Positions 37,186-53,497 are shown, numbered from the stretch's first letter. The stretch: DNA of 64,000 bases from Candidatus Woesearchaeota archaeon (GCA_964490795.1 CAZBDY010000001.1:24806-88805), one strand, 5' to 3'. A program made the numbers and translations. The notes: generated by a model from the letters alone, not told the origin.

Positions 37186-37511
37186 ACCCCACCATCAGTT
37201 GAAGTACATCTGCCTTCTTCTATCCCTTTTTTGCATTGAGGACATACTTTATCAAACTCTTTATTTTTTATCATATCATCACAATAACAGCTTCCATCTT
37301 CCCATATCCAATTACCAAGATAGCACATTGTACATGGTGGCTCTATGCAACAATCATATCTTCCAATTTCCTTTGCATCTTCAATATTACTAAACAACTG
37401 ATTTAATAAAAGTTCTCTTTTTGTTTCAAAATTTCTTTGATTTGTAAATACCAAAAGTGAGCTAAATACAATAAGAAAGGCAAGGATTGATATTAAAAAT
37501 ATTCTTTTCAT
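37173..37511 (-). CDS. secreted cysteine-rich protein
   Basis: Signal/TM, then 12 Cys including CCIEPPCTMC. Confidence 0.35.
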   Translation of the reverse strand: MKRIFLISILAFLIVFSSLLVFTNQRNFETKRELLLNQLFSNIEDAKEIGRYDCCIEPPCTMCYLGNWIWEDGSCYCDDMIKNKEFDKVCPQCKKGIEEGRCTSTDGGVCEI

Positions 37512-37864: not shown

Positions 37865-38319
37865 TTGAATCTATAAGCTCCCTTTTTTAAATCAGATATC
37901 TTAATTATCAAGTTGTCCCCTTCTATTTTGCTTGGCAAATAACCTGGCCAGCATCCACCACCACGAAGATTTTCTGTTCCTAAACCAGAAATAGGATATC
38001 TGTTTCCGCAATTATTACAAATCATAAAATCCCCTTCTTGTCTATACCCTTTTCTGCTTCCATAACAAACATCACAGGCATCAAAAGCTGTTTTTATTGT
38101 TCCATCTTTTGCCTTAACTACAAAATATTTTATTTTGATTCTACTCGAATCATATTCGTACCATTCTGCATTTTCAGATATTTCTGGTAAGGATATTTTT
38201 ATAGTTTCATCAGAATTTTTTATTGTATTTCCAGTTATATCTGATTTTCCTGAAAACAGAAAAAAAACACCAGCTAATAACAAGACAACTACAGATAAGA
38301 TTAATATTATTTTTGTCAT
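37861..38319 (-). CDS. membrane-anchored Cys-cluster protein (DUF2318-like)
   Basis: N-terminal TM; CDVCYG...CNNCGN double CxxC. Confidence 0.35.
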   Translation of the reverse strand: MTKIILILSVVVLLLAGVFFLFSGKSDITGNTIKNSDETIKISLPEISENAEWYEYDSSRIKIKYFVVKAKDGTIKTAFDACDVCYGSRKGYRQEGDFMICNNCGNRYPISGLGTENLRGGGCWPGYLPSKIEGDNLIIKISDLKKGAYRFK

Positions 38320-39212
38320 CTTGCTAAAACTCCCTCAATTGCTTGTTGAAATACATCATATTGCTGAGCTCCTGAAATTAATTTATATCCTTGTTCTGAA
38401 TTTCCAATTAAAAATCCAGGTGTTCCAGTGATTCCAAGAGATTGCCCAAATGAAGTTGATTGGCTAACTTGTGTTTTATATTTTCCAGAGTTTAAACATT
38501 CATTAAATGAAGTTTCATCTGCTCCTGTCTGAACAGCTAACCCAGATAATAGTGAGGGATTACTTCTCACTTCTTGTTGATTCTCTAAAATTAATCCAAA
38601 CATCTCCCAGAAAGCCTCATCTCCATTTAATTCTCTCACACAAAGTGCAGCCTCATGAGGTGTTGAGGTCCCCACACCAACAAAATCAGCGAAAATATGT
38701 TTAACTAGCCCTTTATCAATATAATTCTCTTTTATTAGGGGTTTTGTTTGAAGATAATGCCTCTGGCAAAAAGGACAACTAAAATCAGTGAATTCAATAA
38801 TTGTAACAGGTGCATCTTTATCACCCAAATAAGCATAATTTTCAATCTGAGACTCTTCAACATTAACTCTTTGGCCTTGTTGTACTTGTTGAGTTTGTTG
38901 TTGAGAAATTTGTGTTGGTTGAGAGATTAAAGGAGAAATCTCTTGAATAAAATATTCTCCATCTTTAGTTATATAAACTGGAATGTTTTGCCCCTCATAT
39001 AAAACAGTTATTTTATACAAATTTCCTAGATCTTGTGAATCAACAAAACTAATTCCACCTTCAGTTAAACTATTTAGATATTCTACTATTTTTGTTGATG
39101 CAGATTTTTCAGAGATAGTTCCTCCCCTAAATCCAAATGCTCCTATTAATACTATAAGCAGCAGAATTGCTGAGATTATCTGCCATATCCTTATATTATT
39201 TATTTTTTTCAT
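38316..39212 (-). CDS. DsbA-like thiol:disulfide oxidoreductase (thioredoxin fold), membrane-anchored
   Basis: N-terminal TM, Q-rich linker, CPFC active site FSCPFCQRHY. Confidence 0.55.
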   Translation of the reverse strand: MKKINNIRIWQIISAILLLIVLIGAFGFRGGTISEKSASTKIVEYLNSLTEGGISFVDSQDLGNLYKITVLYEGQNIPVYITKDGEYFIQEISPLISQPTQISQQQTQQVQQGQRVNVEESQIENYAYLGDKDAPVTIIEFTDFSCPFCQRHYLQTKPLIKENYIDKGLVKHIFADFVGVGTSTPHEAALCVRELNGDEAFWEMFGLILENQQEVRSNPSLLSGLAVQTGADETSFNECLNSGKYKTQVSQSTSFGQSLGITGTPGFLIGNSEQGYKLISGAQQYDVFQQAIEGVLAR

Positions 39213-39252
39213 TTGCTCAACCTCTGAATATTTTTTATTTTTTGTTCCATTT

Positions 39253-40023
39253 TTATTTTCCTAAACTGCAAGTTGGACTTCCACAGCTCCCCCCACAAGA
39301 TGAAGATCCTCCACATCCTCCTGAACAGCTTCCTTCGGTATTATCTGCTAATTTTTGTACTTCCTGAATTTGGGTGTTTTGAGAATCACTAATTAAGGTG
39401 GCGGGATATTCCTCAAAAACCTCTAATCCTAAAATCTCATCTACAGAGGTTTTACTTTTATCATACTTTACTTCAAAATTATTTGGGAAAGAGTATTTTA
39501 CATCAATAATTCCGTCAATAGTTTTTATTTCATTTGAAATTAGAGGTGCATGACCTGGGCAAGGAATATCTGATTTTAAACTAATTGTTCCTAAATTTTC
39601 AGGATTTCCATCAAACACAACAGCTCCAGTCAGAGAAACATTTGCCAAAAGCGGAAATACAAAAAAGAAAAGAATCAAATTAATCCCTATGGTTGAGCCA
39701 TACATTATAGATAAATATCCTTTCTTTTTCTTAATCCCTTCCCAAGATAATAATTTATTTTTCCTTAGATATAGGAAAGACGATAGTGTTGCAAATCCTA
39801 CTGAAAGCAATATTAAATAGTGAAAGATATATCTATTCATCAAGAAAGGCCTAAAAAACTGCATTAATATCGTTGCTCCTAAAACTGCACCTATAATAAA
39901 CATAATACATCCAATATGAGGGATTATACCATAAGCTATTCCCATTAAAGGGTTATTTCCCTTATATTCTTTTTTTGGCTTGCAACAATCGGGCAAGTTT
40001 TGATTATTTGATTTTTCTTCCAT
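39253..40023 (-). CDS. membrane protein with HMA-like domain and Cys/Gly-rich C-terminal tail
   Basis: N-terminal CC pair, 4-5 TM helices, IPCPGHAPLISNEIKTIDGIIDVKY (HMA-like) and C-terminal CSGGCGGSSSCGGSCGSPTC. Confidence 0.35.
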   Translation of the reverse strand: MEEKSNNQNLPDCCKPKKEYKGNNPLMGIAYGIIPHIGCIMFIIGAVLGATILMQFFRPFLMNRYIFHYLILLSVGFATLSSFLYLRKNKLLSWEGIKKKKGYLSIMYGSTIGINLILFFFVFPLLANVSLTGAVVFDGNPENLGTISLKSDIPCPGHAPLISNEIKTIDGIIDVKYSFPNNFEVKYDKSKTSVDEILGLEVFEEYPATLISDSQNTQIQEVQKLADNTEGSCSGGCGGSSSCGGSCGSPTCSLGK

Positions 40024-40076
40024 AACAGGAGGTAGAATGAAACACCTTATAAGCGATTGTATGAAACTAGTTTCAG

Positions 40077-40583
40077 TTAGTGTTTAAGAATAATAATATT
40101 AGTCATGCCTCTTCTTTTTCTTTCAACTAAACCTTTCCCTTCTAATCTATCTAACAAACGAGTAACTTTGACTTTTGTAAGTTTTGATTTATCTACCAAA
40201 TCTGATTGAAATATTGTTCCATCTGCTTCCACAATCTTCTCAAAGATAAGTTTTTCATCATCACTTAAATCACTCATTACTTTCTGATAATTTTCTTTTG
40301 TAATCTTTTTAGGCTCAATTTGTTGTTTAATTGTTTTGACTTTTGTAATTATTTTTTCTTCTATCCCAAAGAATACTAAATATAATCCAATTATAATTAT
40401 AAAGACCATTATCCCTATACTCATGTTAGTCTGAAAATTTATTGAACCCCACATTGGGCAGGTAGAGCCATGTTCACAAGAAGTATTAATAATCTCAGTC
40501 ATTGCTCTATTAAAAGAGAATATTATAAAACCTATTAGTGCTGCTATTCCTAAAACTATAAATCCTGCAATTCGGTTCTTCAT
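40077..40583 (-). CDS. membrane-anchored winged-helix transcriptional regulator
   Basis: Two N-terminal TM helices with a CEHGSTCPMWG Cys pair between them; C-terminal wHTH LSDDEKLIFEKIVEADGTIFQSDLVDKSKLTKVKVTRLLDRLEGKGLVERKRRG. Confidence 0.5.
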   Translation of the reverse strand: MKNRIAGFIVLGIAALIGFIIFSFNRAMTEIINTSCEHGSTCPMWGSINFQTNMSIGIMVFIIIIGLYLVFFGIEEKIITKVKTIKQQIEPKKITKENYQKVMSDLSDDEKLIFEKIVEADGTIFQSDLVDKSKLTKVKVTRLLDRLEGKGLVERKRRGMTNIIILKH

Positions 40584-40637
40584 ATTATAGGGAATAAATA
40601 ATCTTATTTAAATATCTTCTTATTTTTTTTAGGGGTT

Positions 40638-40839
40638 AAACGGCGACCCCAAAACATCTTCTTTTTTCCAAAAAAGAAGCAAAAAAGGACGGCGACCCCT
40701 TTAAGATTTGACTGAAAAGCACTATCGTGCTAAAAACGAAATTGCCCTTAATGTTTTAATAGAAAGCCCTACGGGCTAGAGAGAGAATTCCCTTAAAAGA
40801 TACTCTTGCTACGCAAGAATTGATAGAAAATTAAATTTA
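40638..40839. repeat. right arm of inverted repeat (reverse-complement copy of 32835-32976 with insertions)
   Basis: Reverse complement reads ttaaatttaattttc ... gggaattctctct ... aagggcaatttc ... aaaggggtcgcc ... ggggtcgccgttt; inserted hairpins agccc-tac-gggct and cttgc-tac-gcaag. Confidence 0.7.
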
Positions 40840-41147
40840 ACTTCTCCGGTTTTTTGCTACGCAAAAAATCCTCGACCCCACTGCGTTCTCCTCGCTTTGC
40901 TCGTCGGGGCGTATAACAGCACTTTAAAGAGAAATGCCTCAGCTCGGCATTTCTCCAAATTTTTTCTCAGCTCTGAAAATTTTGCCAGCTCTGTTTCACG
41001 AGGGCAAAATTTTCGAGGAGAAAAAACTTCTTTAAATGCGATGTTCTTAGCAATAAAAATGAAGTTTTTTACCCGCCCAATTTTGAAGAGAACACTATCT
41101 ACTTTAGCATACAAATCTTTTTATATCCCTTCTTCTTTTCTTTCGTC

Positions 41148-41588
41148 ATGGATATTGTCAACCAAGTTGCAGATGAATTAGAGAAAAGAGGACAAGAAAG
41201 AATTTCTGGACATCTTTATGGGCTTCGACATGAACTTATAGGAAAGCCTTGTTTATATTCTTGTGATGGAGATTTAAAACCTGCAATTCCTTATGGTGCT
41301 TATAGATTAGATAAAGATGCAGAAATTCATGTTGCCGAATATAAACAAGGAAAACCACTTTTAGCTATCGCTTATTTTGATTCTCATTCATCTTGCGAAG
41401 GTTCAAATGTTCATGTCAAAGCACTTTCCGCAGTTAGTCCCGATGACTTAATTCCTGTCGACCCGTCTTCAAGAAGAGGACAGGAAATTTCTCATATAAT
41501 TCTTTCTTGGTTGGTTGACAATCGTGATGGAACTTTTAGAGCAGAAGAAAGAAGAAGGAAAAGACTTGAACAAGAAGTAACTGCTTAA
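41148..41588 (+). CDS. hypothetical protein (GC-shifted cassette gene)
   Basis: 146 aa non-repetitive ORF flanked by repeat modules; no recognised motifs. Confidence 0.35.
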   Translation: MDIVNQVADELEKRGQERISGHLYGLRHELIGKPCLYSCDGDLKPAIPYGAYRLDKDAEIHVAEYKQGKPLLAIAYFDSHSSCEGSNVHVKALSAVSPDDLIPVDPSSRRGQEISHIILSWLVDNRDGTFRAEERRRKRLEQEVTA

Positions 41589-41918
41589 TTTTGCGATAGT
41601 GTTCTCTCCTATTTTAATTTTCCCACCCTAAAACTTCATTTTTACTTCTTCGAAAAATCAAAGATTTTTCTCGACCACGTCCTGCGGACTTTCGCACTGC
41701 GGTGCTCAGGGCTAAGAACAGGGCTTAAACAGAAAATCCTTGCAGGATTTTCCCAAATTTTTTCTTTCAGAAAAAACTCTCGAGGTCACTTCGTTCTGCT
41801 CGAGCCCTACGGGTTGTTTAAGCCCGATTCAACGAAATTTTTTGCTCCACAAAAAACTCTGCGCGAGATTAATTTTAGTTATTCTATTCCCCACCCGAAG
41901 GATGTGCCTTAGAAAGAT

Positions 41919-42197
41919 TTACTGAGAATATGCATCAGGGAATGTATTTAATACGCCTAAAGCCCCATAAGTAGGAATTGGGTCAGTAGCTCCAACAAGA
42001 AAACCTCTAACCATTCTATCTACACTTTTTTTATCGTCTGCACTACCGCCAAGTATTTGTACAAGTCCTTCAGACCCGCCACAAGCATTTAACATTCTTC
42101 CTGTTGCACCCGAAATGTCATCAGTCATACCATAGTCTAAGAATCTCTGTCTTAGTCTTTGTAACATTTCATTAAGTACTGCATTTCCATCTACCAT
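41919..42197 (-). CDS. hypothetical small protein
   Basis: 92 aa, Gly-rich; lies between repeat modules. Confidence 0.3.
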   Translation of the reverse strand: MVDGNAVLNEMLQRLRQRFLDYGMTDDISGATGRMLNACGGSEGLVQILGGSADDKKSVDRMVRGFLVGATDPIPTYGALGVLNTFPDAYSQ

Positions 42198-42536
42198 GTT
42201 TTTAAGAATGCAAATGCCCTATATAAATATTTCTATATGTAACTACTATTAAAGGATAAAGGCACATCCTCCCCCACCCTTAAAATTAGTCTAAAATTAA
42301 TCTCGCTTGCCACGCCTTGCAGGCTTTCAGAAAATCAAAGATTTTCTTCAGGTCGCTGAACAGCGATTAAAAAGAAATTTCTTGCAGAAATTTCCCATAT
42401 TTTTGCTACGCAAAAACACTCGAGGTCACTTCGTTCCACTCGAGCCCTTCGGGTTGTTTAATCGCGATGTTAATTGCAATATTACTCGGTGGCAAAACAG
42501 CATAAATTTATTAAAGCCCTCTTATTCTAATACACT

Positions 42537-42809
42537 ATGAGAAAATTAATCGACAAAGCTGCTGAATTTTTGGATGATTTAGCTTGGAAATTATCTCCTC
42601 ATCCAGATTTGCCAATTGGCGAACCAGTTTGTAATGTTTCTGATGAAACTAATGAATGGAATAAGAGGGCTTTGGAACATGCTTGGCGACCAGGAAATGG
42701 TTTAATTCCTTATAGAAGAGAGTTCTCTCAAGAAGAAATGCAAAAAATGCAAGAGAGAACTTATGAAATGAATCGCCAAGCACTAGACTATGCTAATAGC
42801 CAAAGATAG
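42537..42809 (+). CDS. hypothetical small protein
   Basis: 90 aa ORF downstream of a repeat module. Confidence 0.3.
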   Translation: MRKLIDKAAEFLDDLAWKLSPHPDLPIGEPVCNVSDETNEWNKRALEHAWRPGNGLIPYRREFSQEEMQKMQERTYEMNRQALDYANSQR

Positions 42810-42842
42810 TTTTTTGCCCCTGCGTCATACTGTGCCTACGCT

Positions 42843-43832
42843 TTGCTTCGGCATTTTTTCTTGCAGAAAAAACAATTAACAGCGCAGCCAAATCCTGAAT
42901 TTATGAGAGATATGATACCCCATATGTTAGATCATTCTGAAGAATCCATAAAAAAAGTTACTTTTAAAGAAAGAGATCTAAGAGCGGTAATAGGTTTATC
43001 TGGAGGGCTAGATTCTTGTATCTCTGCTTGGTTAGTTTCTAATGCAATATCAAGGGGAATAAAAAGAAAAAGCTCGGATAATGGCAGATTAGTTTTAATG
43101 ACTTTTAATGGGATGAGCCAAGAAGATTTGGAATACGGCGGGAGATTTGCAGAAGATTTGGAAAGAGATTTTGGAGATATTGATATAAAATATGTAGAAA
43201 AAGATATAAGGCCCTTAATGCGTTCTGTTCATGATTTTACTGATGATATGGTTCATACTACTAGAGGAACTAAAATTTATCCTGGAGAGTTAGCTACTAG
43301 ATTAATAGACTTAGTAACCTTGGAATATGCTGATAAAACAGGCCATTGTGGAGTAGACTCTACAAACGGGAGTGAGATAATTTTGGGAGAGATTGTACTC
43401 GGTGCAGGGTTAGAATATTCTCCTATAAGCGATTTGTACAAAAGCCAAGTCTTTGATTTAGGAGAATTATTAGATGTTCCCCAGTATGTTTTAGACAGAA
43501 ATCCTATAAACTCCACTTTTGGAACAGATAAAATTAGAAGTTATTTTGGAGAAATTCCAGAGGGATTCAGTGCAAGAGAGGTTTATGCAGTTTTAGATCC
43601 AGTTTTATTCCATATATTTGACAAAAATATGAAACCTCGAAGTATAGCTCGTAAATTAGGCCATTCTCAAGATTTTGTTGATAGAGTTTACCAAAGAGTT
43701 AGAAATCAAGATCATAGAAGAAAACACCCTTATTTTGCTTTAAACGATAGAAGAATAAATTTACCAAGAACCGTCAAAGGTAAACCAAATCAAGAGTTTA
43801 AAGAATATTTGGACGGTTGCTTTTTAAGATGA
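42843..43832 (+). CDS. PP-loop ATP pyrophosphatase, NAD+ synthetase (NadE)-like
   Basis: SGGxDS PP-loop in RAVIGLSGGLDSCISAWL; NadE-like C-terminal block YSPISDLYKSQVFDLGELLDVP...NPINSTFG. The N-terminus may be shorter than the track start. Confidence 0.55.
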   Translation: MLRHFFLQKKQLTAQPNPEFMRDMIPHMLDHSEESIKKVTFKERDLRAVIGLSGGLDSCISAWLVSNAISRGIKRKSSDNGRLVLMTFNGMSQEDLEYGGRFAEDLERDFGDIDIKYVEKDIRPLMRSVHDFTDDMVHTTRGTKIYPGELATRLIDLVTLEYADKTGHCGVDSTNGSEIILGEIVLGAGLEYSPISDLYKSQVFDLGELLDVPQYVLDRNPINSTFGTDKIRSYFGEIPEGFSAREVYAVLDPVLFHIFDKNMKPRSIARKLGHSQDFVDRVYQRVRNQDHRRKHPYFALNDRRINLPRTVKGKPNQEFKEYLDGCFLR

Positions 43833-44308
43833 ACATTATAATTTCTTCAGGATACGGAAATGGAAAAACAGAAATTGCTGCATTTGATGAAGCTCTTAAT
43901 AATGCAGGTCTCTCTAATCTTAACTTAATTTATCTTTCTTCAGTTATACCTCAAAAAGCTCATATAAATCTTAAAAAAAAGAGTCCAAAGTATAAACATG
44001 GAGATAAAGCTTATGTAGTCTTGGCAAAGAATATCTCTAAAAATAATAAGAAAATAAGTGCAGGATTGGGTTGGGTCCAAGAAAAGAAATCTGGAGAAGG
44101 ATTATTTGTTGAAATTATTGGAGAAAATAAAGCGAAAGTGATCAAAGATATTAAAGAAACTTTAAAACATATGAAGAAGCTGAGAAAAAAAGATTTTGGA
44201 CCAATTAATTATGAGATTAAAGAAGCAAATTGCAAACAAGGATATAATTGTGTTATAGTAATAGCTTTATATCAAATAGAATCTTGGGATTTAAGTAAAA
44301 ACAGATAG
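43829..44308 (+). CDS. pdaD: pyruvoyl-dependent arginine decarboxylase
   Basis: KTEIAAFDEALNNAGLSNLNLIYLSSVIP matches the M. jannaschii PdaD region [29 protein letters not shown], including the Ser-Ser self-cleavage site. Confidence 0.7.
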   Translation: MNIIISSGYGNGKTEIAAFDEALNNAGLSNLNLIYLSSVIPQKAHINLKKKSPKYKHGDKAYVVLAKNISKNNKKISAGLGWVQEKKSGEGLFVEIIGENKAKVIKDIKETLKHMKKLRKKDFGPINYEIKEANCKQGYNCVIVIALYQIESWDLSKNR

Positions 44309-44338
44309 ACTTTTAAAAGATCTAAACTTATTTAGGTT

Positions 44339-44878
44339 ATGGATATAAAAATTTGGAAACAAAGGAGTTGTGAGAGTTGTTTATCTGTTTCTTTGATGAG
44401 TCTTTTAGAATCACAAAAGGGAATAAAATTAGAAGATGAAGAAGAGTTCAATATTCTTCTTGAAGGATTAAAATTTACTAGGATAGATTTTTCAACAGGA
44501 CACTTAGCGTATCTCGCTAAAAAGCTCCCCAAATTAACATTTGAACAATATATAGATTTTGATATTTTTTACAAGATACTTTCAAAGTTAGAGATTCCAG
44601 AAAATCTTAAAATGTATTCTAAGAAGATTAATTTAAAATTTTTAAAAGAAATGACAAAAGAAAGCCCAGTAATAATCTATGTGGATATGTTTACCTTGGA
44701 AGGAGTTTACCATTATTCTCATTTTGTAGTTTTAACTGAAATTAACGATGAAAAAGCCATAATTTTTGATCCATGGTCTGGAGAACAAATAGAGATAAAG
44801 ACTAAAATTTTAATGAGATCAATCAGTTATGTCCGGAATAGATTAAAAATTGCCCCTAAATTAATTAGAATAAAGTAA
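44339..44878 (+). CDS. papain-like (C39-like) cysteine peptidase domain protein
   Basis: Q..C...H...D order (QRSCESCLSVSLMSLLE ... HYSHFVVL ... DPW) over 179 aa. Confidence 0.35.
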   Translation: MDIKIWKQRSCESCLSVSLMSLLESQKGIKLEDEEEFNILLEGLKFTRIDFSTGHLAYLAKKLPKLTFEQYIDFDIFYKILSKLEIPENLKMYSKKINLKFLKEMTKESPVIIYVDMFTLEGVYHYSHFVVLTEINDEKAIIFDPWSGEQIEIKTKILMRSISYVRNRLKIAPKLIRIK

Positions 44879-45511
44879 TTTCGTGTAGCGTCTTCTTTTT
44901 AGAAAAAAGAAGCAAAAAGATGGAAATCCCCATTTTCTTTTTTTAAGAAAAAAAGAAACAAAAAAAGCACGCGTCTCTCTAATACATAGCCCACCCAAAA
45001 AATATTATTTCAAAATTTTATAAAACGGCATTCTCAAAAACTTTGATTCGCTAAAAAACTTTCAGTTTTTGGCGCCCCAAAAATCTACGATTTTTTAGGG
45101 TTTTGCCTTCGGCATCGTTGCACTAAAAATCAATCCTAACGGAGAGTTTAACAAATTTAGAGATTCCAGAAACTTGCAGTTTCTTCCATCCAAATTTTTG
45201 CTTCGCAAAAACTTCTCTAAATCCTGATGTTATGTCTAATTGTTCGAAGGCACTAAACTTTGAAAATTAAAGATAGTTAAAGATGGCACTTCAATACCCC
45301 CCGACCACCCGCCCCAATTAGGAGATGTGTGCTTTCGTGCTACGCACATTTAGTCAAAATCAAAGATTTTGAAATTTATAATTAAATTTTTTTCCACTCT
45401 AGAGAGACTCGCGGTTTTCCTGAAGGAAAACAGATAGTCGGCTTACGCCGATTAATTAGTTGTAACTATAAAGTAAGAAAGATTTAAATAATCTTTTTAG
45501 TATTTTAGAAT

Positions 45512-46837
45512 ATGGTAACTATAGAGCAAGAAAACCAAGGGCTAAGGTTAGATATCCAAAATTACGATGGATCTAATGGAGAAAGTATATCTGTTGGAAA
45601 TTCCTCACAAAGAGATCCTAGAAACTATTTATTTAATTTTCAAAGAAAGCAGAGTAATCACGGATATACTTCTGGAGAAACTCTCTTTTTTAATGGAGAT
45701 TGTGGTAATAATTTAATCATTTCTACTTATGAATCAAACCTTTTTAAAAATGTAAGGAATGCTTTTGTTTTAGCAAATGAAGACAGAGTTGAAATAAGTC
45801 CAATTGCTAATATTTGGGATGCAATATCTAGGGGAAACAGAATCTTGTCTGGAAAGATTAATTATTTTATTCCTCAGAGAGTTTTATCTAGAGAAAATTT
45901 ACCTTCCGTAGATATTGAACAATTAAAGGAAGAACTAAAAATTAAATATGGGTTTGTTACAATGAATATAAATCCTTTATTAGAAGGAAGATCAAAAAAT
46001 GGAACCTATATTTTGACTCAGGGAAAATCTAAATTTGTTTTAAAATACAGGGGAAATAATGAAGAAAGGGCAGAATCAATTTCTCAAGTATTAGGATCTA
46101 TTGAAGATTACTTTCCAAGAGTCTTCCCAAGAATAGATAAAACCAAGAGTTATACTATTAAAATTGGAGAAAATTATTTTGGATTAGAAGAATTTATTGA
46201 AGCAAAAGAAAAGCCAGATTTAAATGTAGATTATTTTTCTCTATTAGGAGATCACACAGGAAGGCTACACAATTCTTTTTCTTTTTTTCTATCAGAGAAT
46301 CCAAGTTTGACGGAAAGATTACAACGAAGAGATTCTTTTAATGAAGCAAGTATAATCTCAGTATATCTGGATTTAATGAACAATAATCCAAATAAAAATA
46401 GGTTTTTGGTTGATTTTTTAGACGAAATTTTAAGGAAAGGTTTCGTTGAGTTTTTACCAAAATTACCTAAGGCACTTATTCATAGAGATTTGAACTGGTC
46501 AAATATTTTTTGGGATACAAATAAGCCAAAAATAGTTGATTCAGAATCTATTGGAATTTATAGGAGATTAGAGGAACTTATCGCCCCATTACTTTTAGGA
46601 GAAAATATGGCAAGACCTAATTATGCTAAAGGTTCTCTTGAGAGAATGATGGAAAATTATAATGATTCAATAAGTGAACCCCTTATTCAGGAAGAAGAAA
46701 ATATCCTTAGACCATTATTAAAATATTCTTTATTGAAATATTATGTTGTCCGTTCTATTAGGAGAAAAATTGAGGACTCAGACTATTTGGAGATTTTACA
46801 TAAGAATCTAAACGAAATAGGGGGAAGAGATGATTAA
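45512..46837 (+). CDS. APH/choline-kinase-like phosphotransferase with ~150 aa N-terminal extension
   Basis: Catalytic loop LIHRDLNWSNIFWD (HxDLxxxN), metal site IVDSESIG (IDxE-like), N-lobe Lys in FVLKYRGN. Confidence 0.55.
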   Translation: MVTIEQENQGLRLDIQNYDGSNGESISVGNSSQRDPRNYLFNFQRKQSNHGYTSGETLFFNGDCGNNLIISTYESNLFKNVRNAFVLANEDRVEISPIANIWDAISRGNRILSGKINYFIPQRVLSRENLPSVDIEQLKEELKIKYGFVTMNINPLLEGRSKNGTYILTQGKSKFVLKYRGNNEERAESISQVLGSIEDYFPRVFPRIDKTKSYTIKIGENYFGLEEFIEAKEKPDLNVDYFSLLGDHTGRLHNSFSFFLSENPSLTERLQRRDSFNEASIISVYLDLMNNNPNKNRFLVDFLDEILRKGFVEFLPKLPKALIHRDLNWSNIFWDTNKPKIVDSESIGIYRRLEELIAPLLLGENMARPNYAKGSLERMMENYNDSISEPLIQEEENILRPLLKYSLLKYYVVRSIRRKIEDSDYLEILHKNLNEIGGRDD

Positions 46838-47693
46838 CAGAATTCCTTTTGAGATAGACTTCCCTTTTGAAATTTTTGATGATTCCAAAAAGATTGATTT
46901 TAGTAATCCTGATGAGAGAAAAAAGCTTTTTGATAGAAATATTTATCGTTTTTTATATTCTGGAAATAAAAATCCCTTATTAGAAAAAAGAAATAGGATA
47001 TATCAAGGGTTATCTCAAAAAGTCGTAAATTCAATAAATAGAGATTCTCCTTCCCTAGAGGTTTTAAGTTGTTCCATTTTTGGTTCTTCTCTTTTTTCAG
47101 AAAAACCAGGAGATTTTGATTTTTTAGTAATTACAAAAGGAAATGAATTCTCTTTGGAAGAAACAACAATGAATTTAGAGGAAATTTCTTCAGAAGGATT
47201 TAAGAAAAATGAAGAATATAATGTTGGAATCTCTGTTAAAGGAGTAGATAATTTTAAGAAAGGAATTTGCAGTCCTTTATCGAGTGTTCCAGAAGAGTAT
47301 CAAAAACAAATAATCTATCGTACATCAAGTGCATTATTCAGAAGACACATACCTCTTTTAGGATATGATTTTTTAAAAAATAGAGAATTATTCCAAAGAA
47401 ATTTATATGCTCAAGCATCTGATTTGCTTATTAATACCTTTGATTTATATTATAATGATAATGAAAGGATAAAATTATGCCCTGATAAAAGAGCAAATAA
47501 AATTTTGTCTCGTATCTATGAAGCAGTCACTTATTTGAGTTTTGCAGAAGATAAGCCAGAAATAGGGCAATTAAGAAAACAAATTTCCAATTCTATTGGT
47601 TTTGGACTACCTCTTAGAGAAACGAAAAGGCTTTTTAATAGGGTAGTCTCTATTTATAATAATAAAACAGACAAAAAACCTAAAAATGAATAA
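46830..47693 (+). CDS. pol-beta-superfamily nucleotidyltransferase with helical C-terminal domain
   Basis: hG[GS]x9-13DhDh motif in LSCSIFGSSLFSEKPGDFDFLVIT; 287 aa; start overlaps the upstream stop by 8 nt. Confidence 0.5.
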   Translation: MINRIPFEIDFPFEIFDDSKKIDFSNPDERKKLFDRNIYRFLYSGNKNPLLEKRNRIYQGLSQKVVNSINRDSPSLEVLSCSIFGSSLFSEKPGDFDFLVITKGNEFSLEETTMNLEEISSEGFKKNEEYNVGISVKGVDNFKKGICSPLSSVPEEYQKQIIYRTSSALFRRHIPLLGYDFLKNRELFQRNLYAQASDLLINTFDLYYNDNERIKLCPDKRANKILSRIYEAVTYLSFAEDKPEIGQLRKQISNSIGFGLPLRETKRLFNRVVSIYNNKTDKKPKNE

Positions 47694-49386
47694 AATATTT
47701 GCTTTTGATTATGATGACACCCTTGCTGAACATGGCGGAAAAATAGATAGAGAAATGTCTGGAATTTTATCAAAAATGATCTTAGGGGGACATAAAATCT
47801 CTATAATTACTTCTAGAACTATGTATTGGTTAGAAAAGAATAATATAAATATTTTAGAAATGATTTTTCCAGATTTTTCCAGTTTATCTAATCTAGACAT
47901 TAAGAGAATAAAAGAAAATTTCATCCTTTATACTGGAAGAGGTAACGAAAAATTTTCCCCTGAAATTTCTAATGATAAATTTAATTTTTATGAAAAAGTA
48001 TCTTATAGAAAATCTCTCACATTAGAACAAGTCTTTAAAATTCAAGAGATCATTAAACAAGAATTGCCTAAAAAAATATTTTCTGGAAAAAATTATACTA
48101 AACAATTTTCTTCTAGAGATCTTCAGAGCATATTGAGAGTAATTATGCGAATTGAGAAAATTCAGAATTCGTCAAAGAATAAGATATTATCAAATATTAA
48201 ATATAAATTAAACAAAATAGGTAATTTATCCAAAATTCTTTTAGAGATTAACGGGAATTATATTAGTTTTAGTTTTAAGAATAAATCTTTTGCAATTAAA
48301 GATTTATTAAAAAATAATCCTTCATACCATCTAGATTATTATGGAGATTCTCCATTAGAAAACGATAAACCCATCTTTGATTTAGCAAAAGGTAAAATGA
48401 AAAATAAATTAAGTTTTATTTGCGTAGAAAACCCCGTCCATACTTTAAGTTTAGTTAAGGTTCATTGTGGAGCACCCCAAAATGAATCTGGCAATATTTT
48501 GGATGTTTTGTCTATTAAAGGAGCAAGAGAAAATATAAAAGAAAGAATAAAAGATTATTGGAAATCAATAGGCTTACAGATATCTTGGATCTCTCCCATG
48601 TTGTCTATTCTAGAAAATAATCAAGATAATGAAAATTTAGCCGTTTTTAAAATTAGAAATAAATTTCCTTCTTTGGGAAATAAAAAGAGCTTAGATTATT
48701 CTAGAAAATTAATCCAATTTAGGAAGAAGAAGATAAAAAATTTAGCTAAGAGAATAAATGGTTTTTTAATCAAGGGTTCTGTAGCAGATATTGGGGGCAG
48801 GGCAGATGATTTCATGGAAGAGATATTAAAAATAAATAATTCCGTAAAAAAAGCTTATGTTACAGACATTGGGGCGTTTTCAGAAAGATCTAAGAATCCA
48901 AAAATAGATTTTATTGTTCAACCTTCTTTAGTCAAAACTCCTTTCTTAGAAAATCAATTAAACAATCTTGTTCTTTCTTTAATTCTGCATCATATGGATA
49001 ATTTAGATCAAGAAATATTTATTAAACATCTTGTAAGTATTTTGAGGGCTAAAGGAAGATTAATTCTTATTGAAGAGGGTTATCCTGAAAGTTGTCTTAA
49101 TGAAAATTTATCTCAGAATATTAAACAATTTTTATCTTTTGAAAAGAACATAAAAATGAAAATAATTTCTTTTTATGATTGGTTTGGGAACAAAATAATG
49201 AGAAATAGAGATAATACCGCATTAACTTTTAATTATAAAACAATTGAAGAGTGGGAAGAAATATTTAGTAAAGCTGGATTGACATTGATTCATTCTGAAT
49301 TTATTGGGAAAAAGCCTAAACATTTAGATTTATATCCTCCAAAAATAATCATGGTCTTTGAAAAAATGGAGAAAGATAAAAAATGA
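47686..49386 (+). CDS. fusion protein: N-terminal HAD-IIB (Cof-like) phosphatase plus C-terminal class I SAM-methyltransferase-like domain
   Basis: HAD motif I FAFDYDDTL (DxDxT), motif II ISIITSRT, motif IV YYGDSPLEND. The C-terminal half has ADIGGRADDF (degenerate GxGxG) and LILHHM...GRLILIE, typical of a Rossmann MTase. Confidence 0.5.
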   Translation: MNKIFAFDYDDTLAEHGGKIDREMSGILSKMILGGHKISIITSRTMYWLEKNNINILEMIFPDFSSLSNLDIKRIKENFILYTGRGNEKFSPEISNDKFNFYEKVSYRKSLTLEQVFKIQEIIKQELPKKIFSGKNYTKQFSSRDLQSILRVIMRIEKIQNSSKNKILSNIKYKLNKIGNLSKILLEINGNYISFSFKNKSFAIKDLLKNNPSYHLDYYGDSPLENDKPIFDLAKGKMKNKLSFICVENPVHTLSLVKVHCGAPQNESGNILDVLSIKGARENIKERIKDYWKSIGLQISWISPMLSILENNQDNENLAVFKIRNKFPSLGNKKSLDYSRKLIQFRKKKIKNLAKRINGFLIKGSVADIGGRADDFMEEILKINNSVKKAYVTDIGAFSERSKNPKIDFIVQPSLVKTPFLENQLNNLVLSLILHHMDNLDQEIFIKHLVSILRAKGRLILIEEGYPESCLNENLSQNIKQFLSFEKNIKMKIISFYDWFGNKIMRNRDNTALTFNYKTIEEWEEIFSKAGLTLIHSEFIGKKPKHLDLYPPKIIMVFEKMEKDKK

Positions 49387-50120
49387 GACCTCTGATATGT
49401 TGCAGTGTTGAAAATTTAAAGGAATTTTCTTTTGAAGATTATCCATTTGAGGGGTATGAATTTAAGACTTTTGGAAGAGGATTTAGTCCAAACATAATCT
49501 TATTAATAAAATTAAAAGAAATGTTTAAAGGAAAAGAATTATCTTTGCATAGCCAATTAAGTAGAATTTTTAGTTCTAGAGAAAAGGGTTTTCCAGAATT
49601 TTCTGAAGCAGAAATGAATATCTTAAAATCTGAGATAATTATTTCAAAAATTATAGGAATTAAGCAGATAAATTTTCATATGAAAGAAACAGAATTTACT
49701 GAAGATGAAACCAAAAAATTCAATGAAATTATAAATTTTGCTAATAAAAATGGAATAGAGATGATTTATGAAAACCATGTTTGTTCAGAGGAAGTGATCT
49801 TTAGAGTTCTAAAAAATTTCCCGAGGATTCAATTTTGTTTAGATATAGGTCATTTAAATGTAGCAGTCCACATGGGTAAATTTAAAATGAATCTGGATGA
49901 ATTTCTGGAAAAGGTAAAATCGAGATTAGTTCATATTCATGCACATAACAATTACGGAGAAAAAGATGAACATAATTCTTTAGACGAAGGAAATTTTAAT
50001 TGGAGAAATGTTTTAGATTACTTAGGTAAGGATCATTTAAAAAAAGTAATTATTGAATCCAAGAAAAAAGAAGATATATTAAAATCAAAAAAATTATTAT
50101 TAAACTACTTTAAAGAATAA
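49383..50120 (+). CDS. xylose-isomerase-like TIM-barrel enzyme (sugar-phosphate isomerase/epimerase; AP-endonuclease-2 fold)
   Basis: Metal-binding pattern CLDIGHLN ... HIHAHNN ... DEHNSLDEG; start overlaps the upstream stop by 4 nt. Confidence 0.5.
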   Translation: MRPLICCSVENLKEFSFEDYPFEGYEFKTFGRGFSPNIILLIKLKEMFKGKELSLHSQLSRIFSSREKGFPEFSEAEMNILKSEIIISKIIGIKQINFHMKETEFTEDETKKFNEIINFANKNGIEMIYENHVCSEEVIFRVLKNFPRIQFCLDIGHLNVAVHMGKFKMNLDEFLEKVKSRLVHIHAHNNYGEKDEHNSLDEGNFNWRNVLDYLGKDHLKKVIIESKKKEDILKSKKLLLNYFKE

Positions 50121-50618
50121 AACTTTCGCTTTTCGTAGCGACTTCTTTTAGAAAAAGAAGCAAAAGCGAGTCTCTCCACCTCAAAAAATTTATTTTCTTT
50201 TTAGAAAAAAGAAACAAAAAAGAGCGCGTGCCCTAAAAGATAGTCTTCTACGAAGATAATTTATATAATAAAACTCAAACTCAACTCTGCGGTTTTTTCT
50301 TTTCAAGAAAAAATCCTCGGGGACGTCTTGCAGACTTTCGCTTCTCTCACCCTCTTTTTTCGGGACACATTTTTCCCAAATTTTTCCTTCGGAAAAACTC
50401 TCGAGCGTTCCACAATTTTTCCAGCTCTGACTTCGTCGAGGGAAAAATTTCTACACCTCGAGCCCTACGGGTTTTTTAATCGCGATGTTCAACTCAATAA
50501 ATTTCTGGCGGTAACTCAATACCCCTCCCTCCTGCATTACCTAATTAATTCTAAAAATTATAAAAGAAAAGATTTATATAGTATTTCTTACATATCTTAC
50601 TATTAAGAGGAAAATAAA

Positions 50619-50873
50619 ATGCAAGATGAAATCAAAGACATAAAAATTGTGAAGATTACAAATAAAGGGCAGATTTGTATTCCTAGTGTAGCAAGATCAC
50701 TAGCAGGATTCAAGGAAGGAACAAAAATTAGCGTGGTAGTTTATTCTGACCGTGTTGAGTTAAAGCCACTTAAAAAAATAAGTGAAGATATGTTTCCGGC
50801 TTTAATTTCTGAAGAAGTTCTTGCAGAAGCATGGGATACTCCAGAAGAGGATGAAATATGGAAGGATTTATGA
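50619..50873 (+). CDS. AbrB/MazE-family antitoxin
   Basis: SpoVT/AbrB swapped-hairpin motif KITNKGQICIPSVARSLAGFKEGTKISV. Confidence 0.6.
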   Translation: MQDEIKDIKIVKITNKGQICIPSVARSLAGFKEGTKISVVVYSDRVELKPLKKISEDMFPALISEEVLAEAWDTPEEDEIWKDL

Positions 50874-51199
50874 ATTATGAAAAAGGGGATGTTGTAATTT
50901 TTAAATTTCCTTTTTCCAAGGGTGAAAAAGCTAAGAAAAGACCTTCTTTAGTTGTGGTAAAATTAAGAGGAGAGAGTGTTATACTCTGCCAAATTACTGG
51001 GCAACAAAGACCAGATCCAAATATTCTAGAGTTAAAAAGAAAAGAATTTCAATCTGGAGGAATTTCAAGAGATAGTTTTATTCGTCCATCTGTTTTGTTT
51101 ACAATTAACAAGTCAAGGATAGAATACAAAGCAGGAAGATTAAACCAAGAAAAAATTAAACAGGTTGAAAACGAACTTGTTAAGATTTTTACACAATAA
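50858..51199 (+). CDS. MazF/PemK-family toxin (endoribonuclease)
   Basis: GDVVIFKFPFSKGEKAKKRPSLVV is the PemK signature; overlaps the antitoxin stop by 16 nt. Confidence 0.6.
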   Translation: MEGFMNYEKGDVVIFKFPFSKGEKAKKRPSLVVVKLRGESVILCQITGQQRPDPNILELKRKEFQSGGISRDSFIRPSVLFTINKSRIEYKAGRLNQEKIKQVENELVKIFTQ

Positions 51200-51281
51200 T
51201 TCCCAAAAGAATATTTTTCAGATACAAAATAAAATTTTACCCCCACAACTTTATAAAAGGAACAATCTATCTTATAAAATC

Positions 51282-52454
51282 ATGAAGGAGTTCACACTGC
51301 CAGATTATAATGGAGGAAGTATAGTTAATTTAATGAGTTCTATTGCTAATTCTTTTGGAACAAAAACAATATATCGTCCTCTTAAAATTCTTCCTCCTGA
51401 AAAACTTAAAGACAAGAAGAATATAGCACTTTTGATTATAGATGGAATGGGTTATGAATATCTTAAGAAAAAAGAAAAGATGACTATACTTAATGATTAT
51501 CTTGCTGGTTCAATGACCTCTGTTTTTTTACCTACTACTGCTTCAGCAATAACAACCTTTCTTACAGGTGTTGCTCCACAACAACACGCATTTACTGGAT
51601 GGTATATGTTGCTTAAAGAAATTGGAGTGGTTTCAACAATATTGCCCTTTTCTCCAAGAGTTGGTGGAGATGCTTTTAGTAGTCAAGGAATTGAAGTGAA
51701 AGATGTGTTAAACCAAAAAGCATTTACTAGCAAGATAAAAGCGAGCAATTTTTCAATAAAGCATAAAAAAATTGCCTATTCAGATTTTTCAAAAGAGATG
51801 TCAAAAAATTCAAAGATTCTTCCTTATGGAACTTTGAATGGATTTTTTATGCAAATCAAGAAAGCTATAACTTCCAACAACAGGCGAAAATATATCTATG
51901 CCTACTGGCCTGAATTAGATTCCCTAAATCATAAACATGGTGTTGAACATAAAAAAGCAGAGAAACATTTTAAACAAATAGACAAAAAATTGAGAAGTTT
52001 CATTAAAAGTCTAAAAGGAACAAACACTCTTTTGATAATAACAGCAGACCACGGATTTACAAACACTCCTGTTGAGAGAATTATCAAATTAGAAGAACAT
52101 CCAAAAATGAAAGAGTGTTTAACACTGCCTCTTTGCGGAGAGGGAAGAGTTGCTTATTGTTATGTTCATCCTGAAAAAACTAATCAATTTGAGAATTATG
52201 TTAAGAAAAAGTTGGGTAAATATTGTCTTCTTTTCAAAAGTCAAGAATTGATAAAGAAAAATTATTTTGGATTAAAAGAACCAAATCCAAAACTTTTTGA
52301 TAGAATAGGAGATTATATTCTTGTGTTTAAAGAAAATTATATAATCAAAGATAAGATTAAAAAATACAAGAAAAAGAAAAAACCTAATATTGGACATCAC
52401 GGAGGAGTTAGTAGAAATGAAATGATTGTTCCTTTAGTCCTTATAGATTGTTAA
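51282..52454 (+). CDS. alkaline-phosphatase-superfamily type I phosphodiesterase/nucleotide pyrophosphatase (NPP)-like enzyme
   Basis: ALLIIDGMGYEYL, PTTASAITTFLTG (Thr nucleophile), YWPELDSLNHKHG, ITADHGF, IGHHGG. Start moved to the internal ATG at 51282 to avoid overlap with mazF. Confidence 0.55.
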   Translation: MKEFTLPDYNGGSIVNLMSSIANSFGTKTIYRPLKILPPEKLKDKKNIALLIIDGMGYEYLKKKEKMTILNDYLAGSMTSVFLPTTASAITTFLTGVAPQQHAFTGWYMLLKEIGVVSTILPFSPRVGGDAFSSQGIEVKDVLNQKAFTSKIKASNFSIKHKKIAYSDFSKEMSKNSKILPYGTLNGFFMQIKKAITSNNRRKYIYAYWPELDSLNHKHGVEHKKAEKHFKQIDKKLRSFIKSLKGTNTLLIITADHGFTNTPVERIIKLEEHPKMKECLTLPLCGEGRVAYCYVHPEKTNQFENYVKKKLGKYCLLFKSQELIKKNYFGLKEPNPKLFDRIGDYILVFKENYIIKDKIKKYKKKKKPNIGHHGGVSRNEMIVPLVLIDC

Positions 52455-52633
52455 AAATCCCCATTTTCTTTTTTAGAAAGAAAGAAACAAAAAAGCACAC
52501 CTCAAATTTTATGGGATGGCTATTTGCCCGCGACCCGCTCTTTCTAATTGATAAAAAGTTACTGAAAAAGCAAATCACTCGACCCACCAAAAACTAAGAG
52601 AGATTTTAGAAATATTATATGCTCTTTTTCAAA

Positions 52634-53035
52634 TTAGATTAATAATAAAAATTTTTCTGGACTAATAATCTTTATCATATCATAAGCTTTTAATTTTAAT
52701 AAGTGTTTATCTTGGCTTATAATAAAATCTGCTTTCCCACTTATTCCTGCTTCAAGAAATTTATTATCATTAGGATCATTTTTTATAATACTAAGTTTTA
52801 TTGTAGGTTCAACAATAATAGAATTTTTAATTATCAATCTTCTCCATTCTTCTATCATATTCCCAGGCATTTGAATTTTGAAATTTTTTAATGTTTTTAC
52901 AAACTCTTCTAGAATCTCTATAGAACTAACTAATTCAAAATCCTTATTTTTCCATTTATTTATTATTTTGGAACAAAAATTTCCTTCCCAGAAAATTCCA
53001 GAGACAAAAACATTCGTATCAAGGACAACCCTCAT
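52634..53035 (-). CDS. PIN-domain toxin (VapC-like)
   Basis: MRVVLDTNVFVSG..., acidic residues DTN/E/D in PIN spacing, 133 aa. Confidence 0.6.
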   Translation of the reverse strand: MRVVLDTNVFVSGIFWEGNFCSKIINKWKNKDFELVSSIEILEEFVKTLKNFKIQMPGNMIEEWRRLIIKNSIIVEPTIKLSIIKNDPNDNKFLEAGISGKADFIISQDKHLLKLKAYDMIKIISPEKFLLLI

Positions 53036-53292
53036 TTTATTCTGCTTTGTTTAATTGCTTTTTCTACATCAGAATCTTTTATTCCCTTATTTTTAGCAAA
53101 ATCTCTTGTTTTTTTGAGTAGTTTATCTATTCCGCTAAAAGAAGGCATCTCTAGTTTTTTCAATATAATTGTATTATTTTCTCCAATAACAACAAATTTT
53201 TCCCCAGTGTGAATTCTCATTTTGTCTCTCAAATTTTGAGGAATAACTACTTGCCCTCTTGAACTTACACTTGTTATTTCAACATTTTCCAT
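53032..53292 (-). CDS. AbrB/SpoVT-family antitoxin (VapB-like)
   Basis: ITSVSSRGQVVIPQNLRDKMRIHTGEKFVV; 4 nt stop/start overlap with the PIN gene. Confidence 0.6.
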   Translation of the reverse strand: MENVEITSVSSRGQVVIPQNLRDKMRIHTGEKFVVIGENNTIILKKLEMPSFSGIDKLLKKTRDFAKNKGIKDSDVEKAIKQSRIK

Positions 53293-53497
53293 TTTAACCT
53301 CCCAATAAGTTTATGTTATTAGTAAGATTATCTTATTTATAAACCTTTCGAAATCCCCCTTTTCTTTAAAAAAAGCACACTTCACTCTAATAAATAACCC
53401 GAAAGAATATTATTTCAGATTAATAAAAATATCATTCAAAAATTCAAACTAACAAGAATAACAACAAACTTAAATATTACTATTTTATATTTATATT

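Follow-up and report, generated by a model that had tools for sequence, protein, structure and literature searches.

A probable integron-like gene-cassette platform beside a XerA-family recombinase gene in a Pacearchaeota-like DPANN archaeon

What kind of locus has its groups of accessory genes separated, again and again, by members of one family of multi-hairpin intergenic sequences? The question is raised by a 64-kb stretch of DNA of Candidatus Woesearchaeota archaeon (GCA_964490795.1, CAZBDY010000001.1:24806-88805; hereafter the window, with all positions counted from its first letter), whose host is a Pacearchaeota-like archaeon with a small, AT-rich genome (~28% G+C in the window). A sequence-only reading had placed such units at 40851-53400 and compared the region to an integron-like or otherwise recombination-site-delimited cassette array or, alternatively, to a family of small structured RNAs or terminators. 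We find that this region is only the distal ~60% of a system that begins at 31.9 kb with a recombinase gene, and we consider it probable that the whole of 31.9-53.4 kb is a platform for gene cassettes, organised like an integron, in a DPANN archaeon of Pacearchaeota type. The recombinase gene and an attI-like site next to it (31.9-32.8 kb), as well as an 8-kb first cassette block, had been overlooked; the first of the two proposals is the one that is now supported, by the recombinase with its attI-like site, by a layout found in 13 of 13 informative loci and by breakpoints between strains that fall on GTT.

The recombinase gene (31931-32752, minus strand; Pfam) encodes a tyrosine recombinase of the XerA family and is transcribed away from the array. 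Its open reading frame (ORF) has 273 aa, and the database protein P0001, of 268 aa, is 100% identical to it; Pfam recognises a Phage_integrase domain (1.4e-45) and a SAM-like N-terminal domain. The protein scores 241 bits against the NCBIfam equivalog recomb_XerA_Arch (NF040815), above the cut-off of 220, while the integron-integrase model TIGR02249 gives 198 bits, in two separate stretches, and so remains below its cut-off of 265. The closest solved structure is P. abyssi XerA (4a8e, 1e-49), which aligns end to end; against VchIntIA (2a3v), residues 174-196 of the query face residues 178-244 of the chain, so that the query lacks ~44 residues of the insertion that characterises IntI, an additional domain near patch III. 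Because the enzyme fails the test that defines IntI, the platform is not a canonical integron. The catalytic-motif blocks GLRVSE, KGxKDR, HxLRHSFATH and LGHS...TTQIY align, and the recombinase is, as far as its sequence tells, catalytically intact. A protein search returns hundreds of relatives at 70-80% identity, named as Pacearchaeota recombinases, and a metagenome scan with the recombinase returns relatives of at most 46% identity and bacterial Xer proteins only. A second XerA-family gene was seen in one related locus, L115 (7254-8000, plus strand; L numbers denote the comparison loci), at 38% identity to the window enzyme; it is truncated yet at the equivalog cut-off, lies 5.3 kb beyond a unit and co-directional with it, and has no attI-like upstream region, a hint that an additional Xer gene, paralogous and separate, exists in some genomes.

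About 70 nt upstream of the recombinase start lies the attI-like site (32753-32840, plus strand), with a crossover GTT at 32824-32826. It comprises a AGGTTACTAAA box (32766-32776), an inverted pair GGATATATAACCTA/AGGTTAATATCC (32789-32802/32807-32818) and a 3' part in which AGAGT-GTTA is followed by TACGCAATT. A site of this kind stands 70-85 nt upstream of every homologous recombinase, with the general form TATAAAAGGTTACTAAA-N10-13-GGATATATAACCTA-N4-AGGTTAATATCC-NNNAT-GTTA-NNN-(C/G)(C/A)AAT, that is, three AGGTTA-type boxes followed by NNNAT-GTTA. All units in turn terminate in YGATGTT(A/C), and the consensus over 64 junctions is T..tTtAatcccgATGTTa.a..caatt, where the crossover can be placed only to within the shared (T)GTT(A/C). 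The sequence 3' of the attI GTT in one genome recurs as the 3' flank of units in others (related genomes were compared as 8-20-kb pieces): the right half of the window site, GTTATACGCAATT, matches unit flanks of L027 and L004, the attI flank of L105 matches unit flanks of L050, L065, L212 and L216, and the attI flank of L050 equals its own unit flank over at least 40 nt.

The units themselves were searched for with a covariance model, R1, which represents the core of the unit, trimmed from a full-length model of 169 positions, and was trained on 15 units of other genomes together with U2 and U3 of the window, so that the latter two match by construction. With default filters, R1 finds exactly five units in the window, all on the plus strand; with the filters off, no further credible unit appears at 30-58 kb. 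U1 (class B core, 40911-41047; 39.8 bits, E 2e-8; junction GTT 41043-41045) closes a complete non-coding block at ~40657-41045; the DNA fold of the unit reaches z scores of -7.5/-7.7, and its 3' flank TTCTTAGCAATAAAAATGAAG equals the unit flank in L081. U2 (class A core, 41713-41831; 128 bits as a training sequence) has a 3' flank equal to those in L062 and L066, a 2-nt gap aside, while U3 (class A core, 42355-42473; 132 bits, likewise a training sequence; junction GTT 42469-42471) folds with a closing stem GCGATTAAA/TTTAATCGC and hairpins P2-P5. U4 (45146-45233; 27.4 bits, E 7e-5; junction GTT 45229-45231) is a short class B core with a closing stem ATTTAGAGA/TCTCTAAAT and outer TAACA/TGTTA. 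U5 (class A, 50263-50491; 51.6 bits; junction GTT 50487-50489) has a long insert in P4, diverges in its 5' half and is 86-92% identical to units of L017, L064, L065, L066, L105 and L212.

The recurring family described by the sequence-only reading is therefore real and far beyond chance: a repeat search recovers a 72-nt block at 41757, 42397 and 50415 and, as also described there, AT-rich palindromes after stop codons, and the short blocks that it named all lie on the plus strand, clustered at 40.7-50.5 kb; only the gaaaaatcaaagatttttc palindrome, which it put at 41625, has to be moved to ~41653. Its two most distal copies stand in part. At 52455-52630, the AT hairpin and the 5' modules of a block are present and no more; this block is truncated (~52455-52617) and, over 160 nt, shares 90% identity with L115 1549-1708, a stretch that has a complete unit after it. 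At 53330-53400 there is a decayed AT-hairpin remnant (~53345-53385, palindrome remnant 53351-53378) and nothing further of the unit. A decayed 5' half-unit ending in ...TTAACAGCG is fused to the start of an NAD-synthase-like gene (~42812-42890, plus strand; blastn) and matches L215 8513-8577 (blastn 80%, 4e-11), overlapping a unit there.

The AT-rich palindromes belong to the same blocks. The pair cttctttttagaaaaaagaag..., ttttctttttttaagaaaaaaagaaa... (44891-44965, plus strand) stands at the start of the non-coding block that follows its cassette's final ORF, and comparable palindromes, paired or single, occur at ~40657-40685, 50142-50221 and 52461-52494 (repeat families D4, D13 and D18). Within the window, the AT-hairpin motif has three matches vs 0.00 expected and the junction motif YGATGTTMNNNNMAAT three vs 0.14, all in the array; the palindromes are probably terminators of the oligo-T type that work in both directions. 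A C-rich motif, CCCACCC(T)AAAA, with variants such as CCCCGACCACCCGCCCC, also recurs in leaders and in the regions upstream of units, both in the window (e.g., 41622-41640, 41888-41896, 42270-42285, 45300-45320 and 50525-50535) and in other arrays.

Is the association of units and recombinase particular to this genome? A search for CTCGAGCCCTWCGGGTT in a single genome of each species turned up 120 loci, of which 23 are Woese-, Pace- or Nanoarchaeota or unclassified archaeal assemblies. The whole ~200-nt unit is kept in these 23; the GC-rich bacterial matches are chance matches without units, and viral contigs hold ten chance matches and no credible unit. Within each locus all credible units lie on one strand, spaced 0.6-2.5 kb apart. 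Recombinase homologs were found by blastn and tblastn in six of the 23 unit-bearing, motif-found loci (L050, L062, L081, L103, L105 and L108), always 0.4-3.5 kb from the units, on the opposite strand, upstream and divergent. Seven contigs were chosen by the protein alone, one of which (L214) is uninformative and ends 450 nt upstream of the recombinase; the other six (L211, L212, L213, L215, L216 and L217) all have the same layout, with units only on the upstream side of the recombinase and, on the other flank, housekeeping genes that differ between lineages. One further locus, L124, which came from the metagenome scan, has a recombinase of 43% identity, a GTTA of the attI type and a unit that is interrupted where the contig stops; this unit is a weak model match and genuine by eye. 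In total, the recombinase lies at the edge of a co-oriented array and is transcribed away from it in all 13 informative loci that other assemblies contributed, as in the window. Very often a contig breaks off within some hundreds of bases of the recombinase gene, on its upstream side (e.g., L122, L123, L126, L128, L129 and L214), and most of those bearing recombinase homologs are 1-3 kb long; the repeated units probably break short-read assemblies, and arrays are for this reason likely to be under-sampled and under-reported.

A strain-level view of the junctions comes from two assemblies, L215 and L216, whose recombinases are identical and whose housekeeping flanks agree at 99.9% over 10,895 nt. 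Their identity stops directly after the attI sequence ...AGGTTAATATCCGGAGTGTTA. What follows is, in L215, an array of ~6 units in 5.1 kb with HNH, acetyltransferase and methyltransferase genes and, in L216, one of 5 units in 9.5 kb with a DNA methylase, a helicase and others, in cassettes unrelated to those of L215; similarity then returns (96%) just past the GATGTTCA of the last unit in L216 and a decayed ...ATGTCA in L215. The proximal breakpoint cannot be the product of homologous recombination between units, because the left side of attI is unique and no unit lies there; site-specific exchange at GTT can explain it.

Each cassette consists of a TTA-NNN-(C/G)(C/A)AAT leader, a cargo of 1 to ~12 ORFs (hypothetical proteins, toxin-antitoxin pairs, metabolic or stress operons) and a non-coding block of AT-rich palindromes and a branched multi-hairpin unit of 90-230 nt ending in YGATG. 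This anatomy, the linkage to a recombinase and the breakpoints at GTT are directly observed in the loci; the linked XerA-family enzyme is the likely catalyst of cassette exchange. Strand exchange by the recombinase would take place at the invariant (T)GTT(A/C) or inside it, so that circular cassettes might be inserted at the primary site and excised or reshuffled between unit ends, and such insertion, excision and reshuffling would be why related strains with identical flanks differ in the cassettes in between. On a folded strand, the cleavage site may be presented by an outer helix of AACA/TGTT together with an internal loop that is asymmetric and a stem that covaries. We infer that the unit acts as single-stranded DNA in folded form and that the strand concerned is most likely the bottom one, as in integron attC and the attP hairpin of CTX phage.

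The most serious alternative holds that the enzyme is the housekeeping dimer resolvase XerA, with its dif site adjoining the gene, and that the cassettes are a pile-up of elements akin to integrative mobile elements exploiting Xer (IMEX), each bringing a dif-like site of its own within the unit, so that no dedicated platform exists. The enzyme does pass the XerA equivalog cut-off and has P. abyssi XerA as its best structural relative, the flank away from the array consists of lineage-variable housekeeping genes, and the inverted half-sites of CTX type, ~90 nt apart, resemble the AACA...TGTT of the units. One junction, that of L027, can be read as an 11-6-11 Xer core, TTTAATCGCGA-TGTTAT-ACGCAATTAAA, with 9/11 complementary arm positions, but it alone approaches this form, and there is no dyad symmetry across the 64 junctions. 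Moreover, the primary site, with its accessory boxes and asymmetric core, is closer to attI or attP than to dif, no replication, packaging or transfer genes were found with Pfam in the cassettes of the window, and the second XerA-family gene of L115 means that a separate resolvase may exist in such genomes. On balance we hold this explanation to be rather unlikely.

A second alternative concerns the nature of the units, which could be structured non-coding RNA genes (small RNAs or cis-regulatory leaders) lying between accessory genes by chance. That they are structured is clear. Each folds far better than its shuffled versions, with z scores of -2.6 to -5.6 as RNA, which this alternative predicts, and of -3.4 to -7.7 as DNA on either strand, and the shape of the fold is constant: branched, with a closing stem P1 enclosing hairpins P2-P5. 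The unit alignment is a mosaic of interchangeable hairpin modules with invariant linkers (e.g., CCCAAAT, ACTCTCGAG and TTGTTTAAKCSCGATGTTA), and the conservation of such unpaired junction sequences would also suit an RNA. In RNAalifold, 20 units share 33 pairs, 13 of which are changed on both sides and none on one side only, and P1, P2 and P3 all covary. At E<=1e-4, R1 recognises 45 units in the window and in the archaeal loci from the motif scan; once aligned, 95.4% of their cells are paired vs 80.4% in shuffles and 31-60% in slid controls, values that are somewhat inflated by fitting the alignment to R1, with the slid controls and the seed alignment in agreement, and cells changed on both sides number 185 vs 44 expected. 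A conserved secondary structure, for which the sequence-only reading had suggested a test by covariance model, is present.

It is the kind of structure that tells against RNA. Wobble pairs make up only ~1.3% of cells, without strand bias, and one-sided pair changes are absent from the seed alignment. Among 229 perfect hairpins in 65 units, 129 have triloops, and 70 of these read TNC on the unit strand (i.e., GNA on the bottom strand), vs 5 in reverse; a control region outside the array gives 6 vs 7. Triloops of the form d(GNA), especially when closed by C-G, are classic extra-stable DNA mini-hairpins (PMC3201870, PMC13037366), and because a bias towards them on the bottom strand, the one opposite the cassettes, is a hallmark of DNA, that strand would fold as single-stranded DNA. 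Reading the TAC/TTC loops as UNCG tetraloops was considered and discarded, since the tetraloop register, judged by eye, breaks the P3 stems. Over the region, Rfam has no match to a unit either at gathering thresholds or at E<=1 (it finds only the RNA of the signal recognition particle (SRP) and two tRNAs elsewhere). The sequence CAATTTTT after some units could be an archaeal oligo-T terminator, but the T-run 3' of units is not conserved, and a unit fits poorly as either a 5' or a 3' untranslated region, because U2 has no downstream gene on the plus strand and U1 no upstream co-directional gene. Since the linkage to the recombinase and the GTT breakpoints would also be left unexplained, we regard RNA genes as very unlikely, and the second proposal of the sequence-only reading, that of small structured RNAs or terminators, is not supported for the units.

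Units could also be miniature non-autonomous transposons, mobilised in trans and accumulated in a permissive region. Cores do have inverted termini of 14-16 nt (..AACAGGGCTTAAAC ... GTTTAAGCCCGATGTT..), and near-identical, mosaic modules do occur across species: a ~345-nt non-coding block, running from the AT hairpin to GATGTT, is 90-93% identical in L017 (2145-2482), L105 (986-1330) and L065 (6539-6879), three different species-level assemblies in which its flanks are unrelated and both its boundaries sharp, while the recombinases are far more diverged (that of L105 is 44% identical to the window enzyme). The 5' boundary of this block is the AT hairpin, with no GTT, and no target-site duplication is seen there. 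The inverted termini covary between unit classes, which argues that they serve pairing rather than recognition by a transposase. Units are, furthermore, co-oriented in each locus and lie only on the 5' side of the recombinase where its gene is present, and none occurs elsewhere in the window with default filters, nor at 30-58 kb with the filters off, all of which makes transposons a highly improbable explanation. That the blocks are ordinary gene-boundary signals of the lineage (terminators, promoters or insulators) found at most genes, a concern of the sequence-only reading and one that AT palindromes with T-runs directly after stop codons and TATA-like sequences between leaders and ORF starts might encourage, can practically be dismissed, as the motifs and the model match only the array within the window and the credible units of relatives lie only upstream of the recombinase gene.

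Several observations nevertheless weigh against an integron-like platform and have to be set beside the evidence for it. A first group concerns the sites. Over the 64 junctions there is no general dyad symmetry or 11-6-11 Xer core (top score 0.37), and the junction of U2 is damaged, with GATTCA in place of the GATGTTCA of homologous junctions and two bases lost. In the outer AACA/TGTT helix, whose pairing is putative, no pair is changed on both sides. An attC site is an imperfect palindrome with R''-L''...L'-R' boxes and extrahelical bases; the units are bounded by AAC...GTT and possess a closing stem as well as an internal loop that is asymmetric, but the inner and outer GTT/AAC boxes of the folded stem are direct, not inverted, and do not map simply onto R and L. 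We had tried to assign the unit stem to the R and L boxes of attC and rejected this, as the orientation of the boxes does not fit.

The second group concerns the cassettes. Those of classical integrons are mostly single promoterless ORFs co-oriented with attC, whereas cassettes of 3-8 kb with several genes, some of them opposite to the units, are found here. Between the attI-like site and the first unit there are 8 kb of minus-strand genes. Finally, the unit block is a conserved module in its own right, as is at least one leader, and the cargo next to them is unrelated. The leader, of ~290 nt and starting with TTCATTTCAATTTCCAATCTCC, is conserved in L216, L017, L050, L065, L105 and L212, in six different left contexts and with differing cargo, and holds an inverted copy of the 3' end of the unit (CATAACATCGCTGATTAAAC). 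Such sharp boundaries of blocks and leaders weigh against the simple travel of an ORF with its site, because that model does not predict them; they also bear on how cassettes are born.

With an integron-like platform as the preferred reading, the array resolves into a first cassette block, the cassettes C1-C4 and a distal end. The first block (C0; 32827-41042, ~8.2 kb; Pfam) holds ~12 ORFs on the minus strand, among them those of a Cu-type P-ATPase, a hemerythrin, FtrD-like and DsbA-like proteins and a MarR/DUF7343 regulator, and ends with U1; R1 with the filters off finds no internal units in it. It is bracketed (around 32976-40583) by inverted leader modules at ~32860-32975 and 40600-40830, which share gggaattctctct, agggcaatttc and ggggtcgccgt as well as, by eye, an inverted GTTA (ttTAAC, ~40826), and from which a repeat search returns an inverted repeat, I6 (32871-32896/40738-40763), plus a gapped alignment. 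Such an arrangement points to an inversion, either site-specific or mediated by the repeats, or else to a cassette that is reversed by nature, and a homologous MarR-x-DsbA operon inside the L212 array is likewise opposite to the units. A 50-nt tandem duplication (94%) was also seen across a gene start in this block (35982-36081).

C1 (41046-41828) carries a 146-aa ORF, for whose protein an exact database look-up has nothing on record, and C2 (41829-42468) a 92-aa ORF on the minus strand (41919-42197), flanked by inverted repeats at 41860-41915/42255-42310 (gcgagattaatttta ... ggatgtgcc) and with the C-rich CCCCACCC on either side in the same orientation. C3 (42472-45228) comprises a 90-aa ORF and genes for NAD-synthase-like, pyruvoyl arginine decarboxylase (ArgDC) and C39-like proteins, and C4 (45232-50486) four ORFs, including that of a TIM-barrel sugar-isomerase-like protein. 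C1 and C2 are thus single small ORFs, the latter reversed, and C0, C3 and C4 hold 4-12 genes; in L212, 9/14 genes are co-oriented with the units. The distal end of the array (50490-53400, both strands; Pfam) contains MazE/MazF (50619-51199), a phosphodiesterase-family gene (~51283-52454) and a PIN/AbrB toxin-antitoxin pair (52634-53292, minus strand), and beyond the array a TatD gene starts at 53498. The PIN/AbrB pair is bracketed, at 52455-52500 and 53345-53385, by direct copies of aaatcccc(a/c)ttttcttt...aaaaagcacac, and looks to have been inserted into a unit block or to have replaced the rest of one. Overall the cargo is cassette-like, with small ORFs without Pfam hits, MazEF and PIN/AbrB in the window and restriction-modification genes in the arrays of relatives; the only proteins shared between the window and other arrays are toxin-antitoxin proteins, those of the MarR/DsbA operon and one weak P-type ATPase match.

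Composition sets the array apart mainly through its spacers. The intergenic gaps at 40.6-53.5 kb are unusually long (94-633 nt) and, all except the last, richer in G+C than the genes (0.33-0.41), whereas in the remaining ~43 kb of the window the spacers are compact and AT-rich and lack the motifs of the units. The G+C content of 0.307 in the array vs 0.266 in the flanks stems from these intergenic blocks and a few cassettes, so that the GC shift ascribed by the sequence-only reading to the genes of the region holds for the blocks and for the three small ORFs at 41.1-42.8 kb (0.36-0.39) and not for the genes at 45.5-50.1 kb (0.26-0.30). Away from the array, the window contains an SRP RNA (5537-5793, minus strand), whose best match within the SRP clan is the bacterial large-SRP model (62.3 vs a threshold of 60 bits), and a 12-nt periodic repeat (CCATATCCATAC...; 6270-6371) inside an ORF without Pfam hit (5828-6718, minus strand). 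Two adjacent small ORFs (3871-3959 and 4302-4390, minus strand), 79% identical at their 5' ends, encode, by eye, MKKKGISPVVATI..., similar in appearance to the class III (pilin-type) signal peptides of archaea, and an exosortase-family gene lies at 16552-17514.

How, then, does the locus compare with known systems? The cer and psi sites have a Xer core with ~180 bp of accessory DNA on one side, which binds ArgR/PepA or ArcA, and resolve plasmid multimers. The units are alike in having a short core with 150-350 bp of one-sided non-coding sequence that looks required, and differ in that the accessory DNA of cer and psi does not consist of covarying hairpins and that cer and psi capture no cassettes. 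In the pdif modules of Acinetobacter, genes, often for resistance or toxin-antitoxin functions, are flanked by 28-bp XerC/D sites alternating in orientation. There, too, discrete modules bounded by Xer-type sites are shuffled, from replicon to replicon, and toxin-antitoxin cargo is common, but the present sites are co-oriented, lie within large folded blocks and are tied to an adjoining recombinase gene. In the attP(+) of CTX phage, a folded single strand brings together two inverted dif-like halves ~90 nt apart, which are recombined by XerCD; the inverted half-sites of the units (AACA-stem ... stem-YGA-TGTT), ~100 nt apart, could similarly fold into a duplex with a central bulge. With IMEX and XerCD-dif systems in general, the locus shares a Xer-family recombinase and tandem build-up next to a primary site, whereas its cargo lacks phage or plasmid functions, it is archaeal, and its primary site is not the symmetric 28-bp dif, whose core has 11-bp inverted arms and a 6-bp spacer (PMC8371274).

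A further comparison is with integrons, including the sedentary chromosomal ones whose attC sites are homogeneous, such as the VCRs of Vibrio. Both have a tyrosine recombinase at the border, divergent from the cassettes, and an adjacent primary site, crossover at a conserved GTT, a strain-variable cargo of hypothetical ORFs and toxin-antitoxin pairs, and co-oriented, structure-conserved sites bounded by AAC...GTT, with a signature of single-strand folding on the bottom strand. There are differences as well. Where attC is a single imperfect hairpin of 55-141 nt, the present sites are branched multi-hairpins of 80-230 nt within conserved blocks of ~350 nt, with strong cross-species sequence conservation, direct GTT boxes, conserved leaders after the junction and multi-gene cassettes of 3-8 kb. 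The enzyme, a XerA equivalog of 268-273 aa, is without the IntI-specific insertion that all described archaeal IntIs carry (PMC9668308). The system is therefore integron-like in architecture and breakpoints, and not a canonical integron.

Integrons are the textbook gene-capture device of bacteria, and in Archaea only the canonical, IntI-type form has been reported (PMC9668308). Ghaly et al. (2022) report 75 archaeal assemblies with integrons and, from these, six IntIs that all have the IntI domain and form one clade, thought to derive from a single bacterial acquisition (PMC9668308). From Nanoarchaeota only integrase-less attC clusters (CALINs) were reported (PMC9668308), one of them in the species cluster of the L212 genome, and these may be arrays of the present kind; we found no description of the units, or of a XerA-linked or integron-like cassette array in DPANN archaea, in the literature, of which most subscription journals were not covered. 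A widespread array in DPANN archaea, if driven by a Xer enzyme, would explain the integrase-less Nanoarchaeota clusters, would mean that integron logic does not depend on the IntI-specific domain, would offer a concrete system for the origin of integrons from Xer recombination, and would be the principal site of hypervariation in symbionts with very small genomes, carrying toxin-antitoxin, restriction-modification and stress genes. We tentatively go one step further, though with rather less than even confidence, and propose that Pace- and Woesearchaeota have an integron analogue of archaeal origin, in which a XerA-type enzyme without the IntI insertion takes up and shuffles cassettes through large folded bottom-strand sites and of which the published CALINs are complete examples; it would represent either a living relative of the transition from Xer recombination to integrons or an independent invention of the same device.

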